A stretch of DNA of 64,000 bases from Eledone cirrhosa (Eukaryota): NCBI GenBank assembly GCA_964016885.1, contig OZ024740.1, forward strand, positions 382,354,001 through 382,418,000, given 5' to 3'. Positions 23,544-59,972 of this stretch are shown here, in pieces. Both the position numbers and the translations under genes were made by a program. The notes beneath the pieces were generated by a model, which was not told the DNA's origin, did no database searches, and saw nothing but the letters and a program-made list of their open reading frames with translations. Positions within the stretch are counted from its first letter, which is position 1. Every line of letters starts with the position of its first letter.

Positions 23544-23894
23544 ACATATATATATATATATATATATCCTGAATATTTTCATATATTCATATATATATAT
23601 ATATATATATAGATATATAGATATATATAACGGAAAAAATGAAACGAAATTTCATTTCCCACTCTTAGTACGGCTGTTACTTAAATATAAGCATGTACAC
23701 GTACATACATATATGTATACAGACGTACAGTAGTATGTATATATATATATACATACATGCAAACATATATATATGTACGTATGGATTCACCGAACACTTA
23801 CTATAATGATCGGTGTGTTTGTAAACAAACATCCCGTATTAAGCCGTAGTGTCCAGCAACCATCGTTGCTCGTTTGTTCAACACTGACAAAGGA

Positions 23895-23937
23895 ACGCTG
23901 TACTAGTTTCAAGCTTATTAGCTATCATCAGCAACAT
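23895..23937 (-). ncRNA. Minimal type I hammerhead ribozyme motif
   Basis: rc: atgttg CTGATGA t-agct-aata-agct-t GAAA ctag TA cagcgt. Stem I atgttg/cagcgt; palindromic stem III remnant. Confidence 0.75.
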
Positions 23938-23987
23938 ATACCTTCCTGCCAGATTGTTGAACGTTCAACAAACTGGCAGGAAGCTAT

Positions 23988-24030
23988 ATATTGCTGATGA
24001 TAGCTAATAAGCTTGAAACTAGTACAGCGA
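23988..24030 (+). ncRNA. Minimal type I hammerhead ribozyme motif (mirror copy)
   Basis: atattg CTGATGA tagctaataagctt GAAA ctag TA cagcga; stem I weaker than in the other arm. Confidence 0.7.
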
Positions 24031-24240
24031 TCCTTTGTCAGTGTTGAACAAACGAGCAACGATGGTTGCTGGACACTACGGCTTAATACGGGATGTTTGT
24101 TTACAAAGACACCGAGCATTATAATAAGTGTTCGGTGAATCCATACGTACATATATATATGTGTGCATGTATGTATATATATATATACATACTACTGTAC
24201 GTCTGTATACATGTATGTATGTACGTGAACATGCTTATAT

Positions 24241-24590
24241 ATATATATATATATATATATATATATATATATATATATATATATATATATATATATATAT
24301 ATATATATATATATAAGTATATATATATATATATATATATATATAAGTATATATATATATATATATAGATATATAAGTATATATATATATATATATATAT
24401 AGATATATATACATATATATATATATATATATATAAATATATATATATATATATATATATATATATATATATATAAATATATATATATATATATATATAT
24501 ATATATATATATATATATATATATATATATATATATATATATATAAATATATATATATATATATATATATATAAATATATATATATATAT
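24241..24590. repeat. (TA)n microsatellite
   Basis: Direct observation. Confidence 0.97.
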
Positions 24591-24683
24591 AACGAAGGAA
24601 ATGTGGTAAGGAACCAGGTGGACCATAACGCACCAAAGTACTCAATACTTGAGGTAGTAGAGTGGGTAATAGGAACCAGTAAG

Positions 24684-24777
24684 ACCCCGACAGCTGAGCT
24701 CAAGCCGTTTCGACGGCTAATTCTGGACTAAATGAAAATTTATCCTGGTATTTAAATAGCCGATCTTCTCAAGGGGT
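24684..24777 (-). ncRNA. Type I hammerhead ribozyme, U3-A8 core variant (inverted copy)
   Basis: Reverse complement of 26480-26573 with one substitution in the stem II extension. Confidence 0.72.
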
Positions 24778-26479
24778 AATTCCATATATGGTCAAAGTGA
24801 TTGTCAAAAATCAGTAGTAATTCTGTGGTTGCAAATTAGTAGGGGAGATGGTGGCTAAACCTGCCAGTAGGAGAAAGAGGGGAGGGTGTGGAGTAGACCC
24901 AATCAAGCGTTGGTAGTGCTAGCTACAGCTGGGCATGAGGTCAAAGAAGATACAGGGGAGGGGGAGGGGGAGGAAGTCGGAACGGTAGGTAGAACAATGG
25001 GGGGTAGAAATATATAGGAAAGAAAAAATACTGAGAGTGAAGAAAAGCAAATAAGTGTAAAGGAAAAAGTAAAGTAAATTAAATTCGACGACCTAGGTCT
25101 CTAGCTATTGTTAGGCTAGAATAAATAAATAAATAAAGAAAGAAAGAAGTAAAGAAAGAAATAAAGAATTAAAGAAATAAGTAAAAGAACTAGGTGGGAC
25201 GGAATAGGCAAGGACCCTTTTAAGAGGTATAAGTACGTAAATGATACGGTGACGGGTCAACAAAAGGGGCCAAAATACTAAAGAGACTACCACGAAATAA
25301 ACAATAAAGGTTTCCATCCCGGGCACAATGCCAGCAACCACCCAGTGCAGCAAAGTGAACTTGTACGAGATAATAATTCTGAGTCCCGAGAAAAATATAT
25401 ACTAATGCTAACTCTAAAAGATCTAAAACAAGCTACATGAAAGTTCGTACGAAGTAAAGGTAGAATACGGAAAAATAAATTCAGAATCCACCCCGCCCAA
25501 AAGAAAAGCGAAGAAAGAAATACTGAAACGAAAAAATAAGGCATAAGTGTTACTAAGAAATATAGAGGGCACAGAGAATAGTGGGAGCGGTGGGAAAAAG
25601 GGGACAAGTATCCGGGGTCTAAACCAACTGCTAAAAAGGGCGGAGTCCGCCAAATCTATCATATAGGAAACTTTACAAATGCTGTTTTCGACGGACCAAC
25701 TCCTAAACAAGAAAGATCAACTGGTTACTGCATGTAAACATAGATTGCGTAGGACTTACCTTGCCCTCAAACCCCATGATGACCCGGGGGGGGGGGGGGG
25801 GTAGACTAGGACTATAACACCCCACTTGCCGATTTTGCAATGGGTAACCCCTGCTTGCCAAGGGAGACGTAAGATCTTCTTTGTATTCTTTTATCGCTTC
25901 CTTTATTTCCTTCCCCCCTCTCTCCTTAGTCCTTCTACCCCAGCTCTTCTCCTTTGTCGGCGTCTTTTCTCGCCCACCCGAGGCTGCCCTTTGGCCCCTT
26001 GTAGCCTTAGTACCCCCACCCCCTCCCCTAGTCTATGATAGATTTGGCGGACTCGGCCCTTTATAGCAGTTGGTTTAGACCCCGGATACTTGTCCCCTTT
26101 TTCCCACCGCTCCCACTATTCTCTGTGCCCTCTATATTTCTTAGTGGCACTTATGCCTTATTTTTTCGTTTCAGTATTTCTTTCTTACTTTTTCCTTTAC
26201 ACTTATTTGCTTTTCTTCACTCTCAGTATTTTTTCTTTCCTATATATTTCTACCCCCCATTGTTCTACCTACCGTTCCGACTTCCTCCCCCTCCCTCTCC
26301 CCTGTATCTTCTTTGACCTCATGCCCAGCTGTAGCTGGCACTACCAACGCTTGATTGGGTCTACTCCACCCCCTCCCCTCTTTCTTCTACTGGCAGGTTT
26401 AGCCACCATCTCCCCTACTAATTTGCAACCACAGAATTACTACTGATTTTTGACAATCACTTTGACCATATATGGAATT

Positions 26480-57660: not shown

Positions 57661-58390
57661 ACGAACGAAGAGGCGGATCTTCAGGTCTTTACGAAGGTCC
57701 GACTTCCACAACGATCTCAAGCTGTGGCGCGGCGTCCAGGCTTTGCTCTTCCTCTCAACCACATCATCTTCCGTATTCCCAATCTTTGCTTCCCAAAACA
57801 GGAAGTCCTCAACCAATTCTAGCGGCTTCCCGCCTAGATTAGTAATCTTCTCTGGCTTCTAAATATTCTTACCAGATATTTCGTCTTATTTTCATCCATT
57901 CTCAGCCCCACACTCATCGACAGTCTCCACCTCCTGCATCAAATCCTCTGACTCCTTCACTGTGTTTATCACCAAAACTACGTCGTCGGAAAATTCAGCA
58001 TCCGATATCTGACCACAAAACTTACTCAGATGGTGGATAGGTGCTACACGAAAATGCTGAGGATGGCTCTAAACATTAATCAGTATACACTGAGGATGAA
58101 GAACTCAGAGATGTACGGGAGCCTCCCAAAAGTCAGCTCAAAAGTGACACAGAGGAGACTGAGCTTAGCTGGACATGTTCACCGACATCTAGACTTGACA
58201 CTGCACTCAGTGATCCTACGGGATCCCCTGCATGAACACACTGGAAAACGAAGACCGAGGTTAACATATGTCGATGCCCTAAGGACAGACACTGGTCTCT
58301 TGGAGACGCAGGACATGGCAGCGATAATGAGGGACAGAGACCGCTGGAGAGAACTCGTCCATGGATCTCGGGAATTTTATCCGCTCTAGA
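57661..58390. mobile_element. RTE-type LINE fragment with 5' inversion, inserted in (TA)n
   Basis: 57661-58010(-): ISDAEFSDDVVL...LVEDF..RKSKAW..LWKSDL..LKIRLF. 58010-58389(+): LTTKLTQMVDRCYTKMLRMALN..LAGHV.RH..DTGL..RDRWR. Confidence 0.8.
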
Positions 58391-58592
58391 TGTATATAAA
58401 TATATATATATATATATATATATATATATATATATATATATATATATATATATATATATATATATGTATATATATATGCTTGTCGATTGATTTTCATCAA
58501 ATCGGACCGAGGAAACAATGTTTTTGTTGGTCTTTCCAATTGCTAATGCCATCTATCGGTTTCAATCCCAGGTAGAATATATATATATATTT

Positions 58593-58910
58593 GAAGGCGC
58601 GTGGTCGTGTGGTTACTGTACTCGGCTCATCATAATAAGGTGCGTTGTGACCTTCAGCAAGTCAATTCATTTCACGCTGATCCAGTCCACTCAGTTGGCA
58701 AAACTGAATTGTAACTGTAATTCGGAGGGCCAGCTTTGTCACAGTCTGTTTCACGCTGAATCTCCCTGAGAATTACGTTAAAGTTACGCATGCCTGTGGA
58801 ATGTTCAGCCACTTGCAGGTTAATTTCACGAGTAGGCACTTCCGTTGATAGTATCAACTGGAACACTCGTCTTCGTAACCGACGGAGAGGACTCCATTTA
58901 TATGCGTGTG
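58593..58910 (+). mobile_element. tRNA-derived SINE (degenerate head)
   Basis: ggcgcgtggtcgtgtgg head; gcgttgtgaccttcagcaagtc..tttcacg block shared with the 26870 SINE. Confidence 0.6.
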
Positions 58911-59100
58911 TGTTTAAATATATATATATATATATATATATATATATATATATATATATATAAGCAGAAGGGATACTCAATTTGTTGGTAATTCAACAAA
59001 TATAAATGTTTATAACTGGTTCAGAGCACTCAACAGTTTCTGGAGTATATTATACAATGATATTAAATAAATGGAAAATATATTTATAAAACCATATTTA

Positions 59101-59157
59101 TTCTATTATATATATTTCAAGGTTACCAAAATGTTGGTACGTTATCATCAGATAAAA
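59101..59157 (-). ncRNA. Type I hammerhead ribozyme
   Basis: rc: ttttat CTGATGA taacgtaccaa..ttggtaacctt GAAA tatata TA atagaa. Confidence 0.65.
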
Positions 59158-59250
59158 TACGAAGTGTCTTTTATAAATTTCCTTGGAAAACTTGAACCGT
59201 TAAGGTATATTCTCCTTGGTTATGTCAACATTTATAAAACACTCTTCGTA

Positions 59251-59307
59251 TTTTATCTGATGATAGCGTACCAAAATGTTGGTACCCTTGAAATATATAT
59301 CATAGAA
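59251..59307 (+). ncRNA. Type I hammerhead ribozyme
   Basis: ttttat CTGATGA tag-c-gtaccaa-aatg-ttggtac-c-ctt GAAA tatata TC atagaa. Confidence 0.75.
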
Positions 59308-59972
59308 TAAATATGGTTTTATAAATATAGTTTACATTTATTTAATATCATTGTATATATATATATATATATATATATATATATATATATATATATATAT
59401 ATATTAATTGGAAAGGGTTGAAGCGATTAGTGTACATGAATATTCGTAAAGTTTGAGTATTTCGTGCGAAAGGTAGCTGTAAACAGCCGAATACTATTTG
59501 CATAATAAACCTTTTTTTTTTTGTAGTTAAGGGTTAACCACCAATCGAAGGGAGATTCGTGGTTATATCTTAACCCCCAAACCCACCCACCCCGCACTAA
59601 AATGTTTGCTATGCAAATAGTATACAGCTGGTAAAGGCTACATTTTGCGCTGCGAATACTCAACTTTTACGAATATATATATATAAATATATTTATAATT
59701 GGATGCTTAGTAAAATCGAATCTCTGGCGGTGTGCAAGCAAATTCTACCTACTATATGAATGAGTTAGCAAAGCACTCGACAAGGTAGGTCCTTAGAGTA
59801 ATAACATACGTTTAAATAGCTTGACAAATTGAACATTGTGGTAGGCAAAAATCTAACAGACAATACCAAAATAACGAAAGAACTAACAGGTTGAGAAAAA
59901 ATACACCTGGACAAATCAAACGTTATACGTTTAAAATGTTTCTATGAATCCAAAATCAAATATCATACTCAC

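Follow-up and report, generated by a model that had tools for sequence, protein, structure and literature searches.

The window, a 64,000-nt stretch of the Eledone cirrhosa genome, contains six elements (E1 to E6, in coordinate order) that a first-pass annotation had described as non-coding inverted repeats bearing hammerhead ribozymes, all lying at TA runs. Arm alignments recovered two opposed arms in five of them, but resolved E3 (annotated at 37814-38100) into a single arm plus a 72-bp hairpin. As annotated, no ORF of at least 100 aa with real coding character was found within any of the six, and the elements showed no poly(A) tails. The alignments likewise upheld a division into four unrelated sequence groups, with E3, E5 and E6 being mutually 73-85% alike and E1, E2 and E4 unrelated. 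TA runs were present at both ends of E1, E4, E5 and E6, but in E2 and E3 were short or lay on a single side. An extension of 60-130 bp (the PLE 'tail'), absent from the earlier annotation, is confined to one arm in E1, E4 and E6. Predicted folding of whole elements gave -133 to -461 kcal/mol. The individual features were as follows.

E1, 23628..24243: inverted insertion of family B (~420-bp tandem non-LTR retrozyme type)
E1 arms, 23682-23961 and 23964-24243: 269/280 identical (arm alignment)
E1 tail, 23628..23686, minus strand: left arm only; the segment separating the two preferred 3′ ends
E1 left putative type I hammerhead, 23885..23950, minus strand: CUGAUGA at 23931-23925, predicted cut after 23901
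E1 right putative type I hammerhead, 23975..24040, plus strand: CUGAUGA at 23994, predicted cut after 24024; substitutions weaken helix I
E2, 35197..35487: old inverted stub of family E, tail absent from both arms
E2 arms, 35192-35315 and 35368-35492: 102/124 identical, decayed (arm alignment)
E3, 37815..38063, minus strand: single pLTR arm with tail; relative of family D (83-87%)
E3 snap-back hairpin, 38029..38100: 72 bp, at the arm's 5′ end, without hammerhead
E4, 40078..40536: inverted pLTR stub of Hydra family C; tail at 40078-40206, left arm only
E4 arms, 40209-40368 and 40377-40536: 159/160 identical (arm alignment)
E4 right hammerhead-like motif, 40367..40490, plus strand: CUGAUGA at 40374, GAAA at 40471, predicted cut after 40482
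E5, 51991..52338: inverted pLTR stub of Hydra family A, without spacer, both arms tailless
E5 arms, 51985-52164 and 52165-52344: 169/180 identical (arm alignment)
E5 hammerhead cores, 52088 (minus strand) and 52241 (plus strand): motif search
E6, 58962..59355: inverted pLTR stub of Hydra family D; tail at 58962-59054, left arm only
E6 arms, 59046-59178 and 59230-59361: 123/132 identical, 51-nt spacer (arm alignment)
E6 hammerhead cores, 59151 (minus strand) and 59257 (plus strand): motif search

Hammerheads were identified by motif and helix pattern, and cleavage sites were predicted. Full CUGAUGA..GAAA..UH cores were found on both arms of E1, E5 and E6, the same number of doubly equipped elements as annotated. 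The annotated outward reading of the pLTR hammerheads is also supported. The left hammerhead of E1 has a palindromic helix III (ACUAGU) and a helix II whose base is U-U; because helix II of both E1 and E6 starts with U-U, a paired-base filter misses these two elements, which were found via the full CUGANGA list. E4 has a full core on its right arm only, with a 90-nt helix II insert and a helix I of only 3 contiguous bp, and its left arm breaks off within CUGAUGA. E3 retains CUGAUGA at 37994 with a damaged or lost GAAA box, and both arms of E2 lack an intact CUGANGA (CTGATGT at 35347, and a left arm without the 5′ half of the motif). Since E4 is thus one-armed in this respect and the cores of E3 and E2 are damaged, the statement that every element contains hammerhead motifs is only loosely true. 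Unlike E2, 26/30 family E copies sampled elsewhere in the genome have an intact CUGANGA, and the core was intact in 29/29 (family A), 28/30 (D) and 30/30 (C) sampled copies. Rfam was of no help with these AU-rich hammerheads: among 150 listed of 200 matches there was no hammerhead, only spurious microRNA-type hairpins.

Parent elements and the retrozyme-type family

Genome searches returned hundreds to thousands of candidate copies, from which the 30 best matches per search were taken as (non-random) samples. By tracing RT-GIY-YIG ORFs, E3 to E6 were shown to correspond to the pseudo-LTR ends of three predicted Hydra-clade PLEs: families A (E5), C (E4) and D (E6 and E3) are the 3′ pLTRs of elements that have an ORF with RT followed at the C-terminus by GIY-YIG. 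RT/EN frames lie inside or upstream of the matching pLTR in L091 and L092 for family A, in L222 and L223 for family C and in L215-L217 for family D, and are also physically linked to it in L093 and L028 (A) and in L224 (C). L028 has a pLTR upstream of the ORF as well (a partial tandem), with pLTR and tail leading directly into the ORF start. Because searches of Pfam and of PDB sequences with the Hydra proteins gave no match, the RT and EN domains were read from motifs. Hydra-type motifs are CNCRNKSNC and CDLC in L091, CNCNLPDRC and CRLC in L223, and KPDKT in L028; the position of the RWK-type N-terminal motif is a stop codon in the one copy examined. Placement of the RT in the Hydra clade is by motif comparison, done by eye, with the supplement rows of Craig et al. 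2021.

The annotated PLE origin is supported by these linked ORFs, as is (TA)n targeting by the (TA)n found at the 3′ ends of sampled family copies. The autonomous partner had been given as Naiad/PLE; the EN is C-terminal to the RT in L091, L092 and L223, which makes the partner clade Hydra, and Naiad parentage was rejected on this ground and on the presence of canonical hammerhead cores. Family C was also considered as a parentless SINE-like element, a candidate discarded upon finding the ORF in L222-L224. No tandem non-coding arrays were seen in the sampled loci of the E3 to E6 families, which had linked ORFs instead. Family E, to which E2 belongs, extends at least 0.4 kb and probably >1.5 kb upstream, and L271 has an RT fragment as inverted partner; no collinear RT-EN ORF was found in the sampled copies. 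That E2 is a MITE was rejected, as family E consists mostly of single arms with tail and hammerhead.

The retrozyme link proposed earlier holds for E1, though not in palindromic form. Judged by its repeats, family B is an ordinary head-to-tail family of the non-LTR retrozyme type, made of non-coding 415-450-bp units with a putative type I hammerhead in each, of which L229 has nine and L043, L046, L051 and L055 are dimers and trimers. A Hydra ORF lies upstream in L229, and the idea that family B is its pLTR was abandoned since that stretch enters its own tail in 19/20 copies. Family B also inserts as inverted pairs that obey the two-site end rule of the PLEs described below, and two Hydra-retrozyme chimeras were found.

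Ends, junctions and the route of formation

In each of the five families, copies terminate before (TA)n at either of two fixed sites, I or T; in E1 the left arm, with the tail, ends at site T and the right arm at site I. Beyond the window, the tail was on exactly one arm in 66/68 scorable insertions, with one insertion having it on neither arm and one (L060, family B) on both, compared with ~34/68 expected if the arms were independent (binomial p 8e-18). In the tail-anchored samples, all 27/27 scorable partner arms ended at site I. Two of the six window elements, E5 and E2, are tailless on both arms and were counted against the one-tail scheme. At 12/92 junctions, the partner arms were partial or stopped short of both sites, indicating that fold-back or later deletion also occurs. 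Nine insertions have arms without any common sequence, and their tailless arm mostly still ends at the pLTR start.

The 5′ ends were similarly non-random. Tail arms stopped at the pLTR start, inside a window of 10-14 nt, in 10/29 copies of family D and 10/29 of family C, and no more than 5 nt from the predicted ribozyme cut in only 2/29 and 1/29, respectively, so that the pile-up site is likely a capped start rather than a ribozyme cut. Counted from site I, the pile-ups lie at about -185 in A, -177 in D and -167 in C. Start-site ends often had a G in place of the template base (4/7 in family A, 7/12 in D, and weakly in C with 3/11), although snap-back or microhomology would also account for two of those in D. 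Such a G argues for a template that was sense and capped. Moreover, the arms of one locus agreed at family polymorphisms more often than random partners: 15/15 vs 0.58 in family C and 28/32 vs 0.62 in family A (each reached by 0/2000 permutations), and 32/45 vs 0.56 in family D (31/2000). Concordance was non-significant in the old family E (42/61 vs 0.60, 172/2000). A single dominant source locus, or conversion of one arm by the other, could also account for arm concordance.

We are highly confident that the elements are 5′-truncated PLE ends (pLTR with or without tail) placed head to head in TA repeats. They are a known type of insertion debris and no new hairpin element, the mechanism being the less ordinary part. 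To the combined explanation, i.e. truncated PLE ends with individual junctions that likely arose by double priming on one RNA, we assign a probability of roughly 0.8. As for that step itself, we lean slightly towards twin priming, in which a Hydra-clade enzyme would prime twice on one uncleaved RNA. The endonuclease would cut both strands of a TA run, the two cut 3′ ends would prime on the same RNA, one from site I and its counterpart from site T, the resulting cDNAs would both proceed toward the RNA 5′ end and often reach the cap at the pLTR start, and the cDNA 3′ ends would join via microhomology or short snap-backs. The outcome would be two inverted arms with a single tail and with hammerheads reading outward, the ribozymes being passengers of the pLTR. 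Priming at the 5′ pLTR of a full-length mRNA would yield pLTR-only hairpins ending at the cap, in mass, and the same machinery would also handle tandem retrozymes. The fuller version, with a dimeric PLE enzyme, both cut strands, two tail-bracketing sites, one capped uncleaved RNA and a trailing cDNA that displaces the leading one, we would give even odds. A minority (E5, E2 and the small hairpin of E3) may be true fold-back copies.

In L1 twin priming, an inversion results when both strands of the target prime on a single RNA, the two cDNAs covering different parts of the RNA. The cDNAs overlap here, in contrast, so strand displacement on intact RNA would be needed; PLE RTs are not known to have RNase H.

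Self-priming by fold-back, with a hairpin made from one template and a staggered endonuclease resolution that leaves the tail on one arm, is a published hypothesis, close to the self-priming proposed in the Discussion of Arkhipova et al. 2013 (PMC3846280) and near the tail remark in Craig et al. 2021 (PMC8557442). It accounts for arm concordance, for spacer-less palindromes such as E5, for the short snap-backs at many junctions and for partner arms that stop early (L096, L162, L176, L188, L194, L213). With a fixed stagger, however, the tail would be expected consistently on the arm made first or consistently on the one made second, whereas short copies have it on the shorter arm in 38 cases and on the longer in 6 (33 within 20 nt; among tail-anchored copies 11 vs 2, p 0.02), and long ORF-bearing copies on either side. 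In addition, each of the nine insertions with unshared arms would need a one-arm deletion ending at the fold, which makes fold-back alone insufficient, and the start-site G indicates a sense, capped template. The one-tail rule, the unshared arms, the concordance and the 5′ pile-up fit twin priming better, and we consider fold-back unlikely as the general route.

Two separate RNAs, one per RT dimer subunit, might instead prime the two cut strands. This would also produce non-overlapping arms and unique junctions, and transcripts of one active source locus would have polymorphisms in common; but one tail per insertion (66/68) is not predicted unless some asymmetry is built in, and the concordance of family C (15/15) requires that each event draw on a single source, so that we find it improbable.

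The first-pass annotation had proposed a distinct hairpin class, 'palindromic retrozymes', that would be transcribed and re-inserted as hairpins. Fold points do cluster near one position per family, and two pairs of near-identical junctions exist (E6 with L124, and L077 with L079). Yet this position is the pLTR start, which is also where un-inverted copies end, and identical junction strings between loci numbered 0/92. L124 differs from E6 at 8/169 positions vs 3-4 for other copies, on which ground the two were rejected as copies of one hairpin, while L077 and L079 differ in their centre base and carry tails on opposite sides. An inverted partner was not scorable in 57/113 sampled copies (four families), the same layout persists where up to ~3.6 kb of ORF separates the arms (L091, L223), and E3 to E6 are extreme truncations of autonomous elements. 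Copies thus do not share fold points, an outcome that the annotation itself had named as refuting its proposal, and a separate class is very improbable. The dsRNA formation and cleavage competition foreseen for it are physically plausible given the whole-element folding energies but would be a by-product, if present; thousands of such hairpins genome-wide could give rise to dsRNA. A search of sequencing runs with E4 listed no RNA data set, which is not evidence on expression.

An origin of the palindromes as artefacts of assembly or of library fold-back is next to impossible: the six window junctions are known from the assembly alone and RAD-seq reads on one family C copy list no strand-change joints, but the arms are asymmetric and differ at 1-22 positions, the end rule is strict, biological and recurs genome-wide, and one short-read contig from a public run (possibly of the source sample) has an inverted arm at the family C start. 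RAD-seq pile-ups at three positions of that family C copy resemble restriction-site ends and were disregarded.

Comparison with known PLEs and retrozymes

Inverted pLTRs with a one-sided tail and (TA)n targeting have been described for EN+ PLEs (PMC3846280, PMC8557442), so the shape carries no weight as a new element class. The elements here share head-to-head pLTRs, a junction palindrome, a tail at one end, strong 5′ truncation and microsatellite targets with those insertions, but have tails of 60-150 bp (30-40 bp there), and most stubs comprise only the pLTR. The one-tail rule, the non-overlapping arms and the start-site pile-up are counted here, where the text of those papers gives the qualitative pattern. 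Craig et al. 2021 (PMC8557442) call the formation of tandem and inverted PLE ends undefined; our copies offer, at modest value, a natural data set on this question, and twin priming, if true, would settle the origin of the tail and the inverted copy, displacing the antisense self-priming model.

The Hydra clade includes Hydra-1_Obim of Octopus bimaculoides (PMC8557442), and the present families resemble it in the C-terminal GIY-YIG, the DKT, the CxCx5C linker, the motifs of CxxC and CxH type near the end of the EN, the canonical hammerhead in the pLTR, the (TA)n insertion and, by eye, the RT motifs. They are other families than those published (identity between the A and C proteins is 36-39%), and have 3′ UTRs of 0.4-1.4 kb and the helix II insert of family C. 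The Naiad clade, having an N-terminal EN and no canonical hammerhead, is opposite on both counts.

Family B resembles metazoan non-LTR retrozymes (PMC7229834; 10.64898/2026.07.22.740005) in its tandem non-coding units and in its type I hammerhead with a short palindromic helix III, and a U-U helix II base has been described in axolotl (same sources). It differs in occurring also as inverted pairs with PLE two-site ends; the word 'inverted' is absent from the main text of Cervera and de la Pena 2020 (PMC7229834). Within the mainly non-subscription literature searched, we found neither octopus retrozymes nor a published twin-priming model for PLEs. A retrozyme-type repeat that follows the Hydra two-site end rule, together with the two chimeras, bears on the mobiliser of animal retrozymes.

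The closest in vitro counterpart is the PAc Poseidon PLE (Frangieh 2024, PMC11167929), which is of a different clade from the Hydra elements. The available text of that study does not link its two start sites to inverted insertions, nor does it report one RNA tested for both strands. In that system both strands are cut and extended, RT starts at two sites that bracket the tail, a dimer is predicted, and unprocessed, uncleaved RNA serves as template; the one-tail rule, the non-overlapping arms and the start-site pile-up constitute specific predictions for it.

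Arms, hammerheads and junctions of the inverted elements

The window has 34% GC and abounds in (TA)n runs. The first-pass annotation had described six inverted-repeat elements with hammerhead motifs as palindromic retrozymes mobilised by Penelope-like elements (PLEs). Arm alignment bore out the inverted repeat for all but E3:

Elements of the window and identity between their arms
23628-24243: E1 (family B), inverted repeat, 269/280 identical
35197-35487: E2 (family E), decayed inverted repeat, 102/124 identical
37815-38100: E3 (related to family D), single arm plus a 72-bp hairpin
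40078-40536: E4 (family C), inverted repeat, 159/160 identical
51991-52338: E5 (family A), inverted repeat, 169/180 identical
58962-59355: E6 (family D), inverted repeat, 123/132 identical

As claimed, three elements (E1, E5 and E6) carry a complete hammerhead core, of type I, on each arm, but the motif is not intact throughout, since E4 has a complete type I core on one arm and the cores of E2 and E3 are damaged. Helix III of the cores is short and palindromic, a trait of metazoan and PLE hammerheads that are expected to be active as dimers, according to the available text of Cervera and de la Pena 2014 (PMC4209133). In E1, E4 and E6, the left arm only carries an additional 60-130 bp.

The E4 core (40374-40482) and those of family E copies elsewhere in the genome (L126-L154) are candidate hammerheads with a very short helix I and an unusually long helix II insert, of ~90 nt in family C and ~60 nt in family E. 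Other repeats of the window were:

51500-51935 (+): neighbour of E5, lone arm belonging to a related family of hammerheads; its core lies at 51839
52589-52671 (-): neighbour of E5, 82-bp additional family A end
24592-26588: seventh, larger head-to-head insertion absent from the first-pass annotation; 404-bp arms (99% complementary), internal fragments, (TA)n flanks, left arm alone extended by ~80 bp
59440-59676: decayed TIR element
47602-48323: short CACTA/MITE-like inverted pair
61444-61970, 21374-21567, 48739-48899, 62816-62924: listed positions of an abundant SINE-like repeat (five copies)
636-1714 (-): presumably a non-LTR REL-type frame fragment
9201-10027 (-): presumably a DNA transposase fragment
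57952-58389 (+): presumably an RTE-type RT end fragment

The last three labels found no Pfam match. No CUGANGA occurs in the arms of 24592-26588, which may hold a candidate rearranged hammerhead. Around E5, TA runs left behind by one insertion appear to be the targets of later ones.

The 3.0-Gb assembly (GCA_964016885.1) was searched with one arm per element, 40 candidates being scored per search. First-look candidates, which are not copy numbers, amounted to 716 (A), 1824 (B), 440 (C), 2618 (D) and 1153 (E); the best 30 loci per search were inspected, and window copies and duplicates were then removed. Scorable inverted pairs made up 56 of 113 insertions of families A, C, D and E, the remainder being single arms, partial or unresolved. 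Among 92 junctions (head-to-head points of two arms; four from the window), no two were identical, and the most similar pair, E6 and locus L124, are not nearest relatives. Each insertion therefore makes its own hairpin afresh, and the idea of a re-copied hairpin with shared fold points was abandoned.

Two-site 3′ ends and the origin of the inverted insertions

In every family, the 3′ end before (TA)n lies either at site I or at site T, 60-150 bp farther, the segment between them being referred to as the tail. Exactly one arm carried the tail in 66 of 68 scorable inverted insertions outside the window (A 16, B 11, C 12, D 19, E 8), the exceptions being the tailless L135 and the two-tailed L060; for family B and the long copies with an ORF, tail state was judged by eye on the printed ends, and insertions with a partner arm at neither site (12/92 junctions, five family B loci and L217) were excluded. 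In two tail-anchored searches, with only the tail as query, the partner arm ended at site I in 27/27 scorable cases. For L215 and L216 the far end was predicted beforehand and found as predicted, while L217 is disrupted there. In the window, E1, E4 and E6 obey this rule, and E5 and E2 are tailless exceptions.

Our preferred reading is that a single uncleaved sense RNA is primed twice (twin priming), given together the non-overlapping arms, the tail-arm length bias, the arm agreement, the pile-up and G at start sites, and published biochemistry. Self-priming on an antisense template is the published alternative (PMC3846280, available text). Junctions often contain short snap-backs, which shows that fold-back happens; it may account for E5 and E2 and for the small hairpin of E3. 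In nine insertions, a tail-only arm stands opposite a tailless arm with no sequence in common, so that neither is a fold-back copy of the other.

Twin priming also accommodates the arm lengths, the tail arm being shorter in 38 insertions, the tailless arm in 6 and both about equal in 33 (11 versus 2 in the tail-anchored set), as expected of a trailing cDNA. Arms of one locus agreed at polymorphic sites in 15/15 cases for family C (0.58 for random partners), 28/32 for A (0.62) and 32/45 for D (0.56), and not significantly above random for the old family E; gene conversion between arms could mimic such agreement. In the tail-anchored sets, 10/29 arms per family (about a third) end at the start of the pseudo-LTR (pLTR) and only 1-2/29 close to where the ribozyme is predicted to cut. 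Families C and E have a TATA-like box upstream of the pLTR start, and start-site ends carry G instead of the template base in 4/7 (A), 7/12 (D) and 3/11 (C) cases. By analogy with the known behaviour of L1, we infer that this G may be a copied cap.

According to the available text of Frangieh 2024 (PMC11167929), a Poseidon PLE in vitro starts RT at two sites on either side of the tail, cuts and extends both strands, is predicted to form a dimer and takes uncleaved RNA as substrate. The inverted 5′-truncated copy, palindromic junction and one-end tail are already published (PMC8557442; PMC3846280; available text), and our literature searches, with poor coverage of subscription journals, found no twin-priming proposal for PLEs. 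What these insertions add is a mechanistic signal that can be counted.

Hydra-clade parents and a retrozyme family

The repeats are real and of an ordinary kind; they comprise new Hydra families and one retrozyme family. In family A, L091 has two inverted pLTRs as in E5 with a 540-aa frame from reverse transcriptase (RT) to GIY-YIG endonuclease (EN) between them, L092 and L093 are similarly organised, and in L028 the ORF start is reached directly from pLTR and tail. In family C, L223 runs from pLTR through an RT-EN frame (one stop) and a 0.4-kb 3′ UTR to pLTR and tail, in agreement with L222 and L224. Family D parents are L215-L217, and family E sequence continues upstream of the arm, with no ORF of its own found in the copies inspected. 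The parent EN is C-terminal, which ruled out Naiad, the clade named earlier for arm comparison. Related remnants in the window were:

28274-30359 (-): broken Hydra-type ORF with DKT motif, RT thumb and C-terminal EN; 3′ end 79% like the arms of 24592-26588
42765-44444 (-): broken RT-EN frames within 42765-45055
44920 (+): outward-reading type I hammerhead with a (TA)18 run, adjoining these frames
45784-47059 (-): further Hydra-type RT-EN remnant, open frame of 374 aa

If the 3′ end of 28274-30359 holds a rearranged hammerhead, this would link the hammerhead to a Hydra-type ORF and not to Naiad. The 42765-45055 region is likely a putative long form of the pLTR-stub architecture.

Family B consists of head-to-tail units of 415-450 bp (nine in L229), and no ORF of its own was found in the loci inspected. 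In L228 and L229, Hydra sequence directly adjoins the upstream side of the B units (the join being mid-EN in L228 and within another family's tail in L229); these joins may reflect the RT switching template between a retrozyme RNA and a Hydra mRNA, or nested insertions. In every unit seen (e.g. in L043), a sequence that strongly matches a 5′ splice site precedes the hammerhead core by ~45 nt; in Penelope, an intron of the pLTR lies close to the hammerhead (PMC4209133, available text).

As far as the available text of Craig (PMC8557442) and its supplement describe it, the Hydra clade, which includes an octopus family, is defined by a C-terminal EN with DKT, CxCx5C and CxxC/CxH-type motifs, all found in the parents here, which also share its canonical hammerheads and (TA)n targeting. 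Family B, with head-to-tail units and no own ORF found, fits the non-LTR retrozymes as described in the available text of PMC7229834 and 10.64898/2026.07.22.740005.
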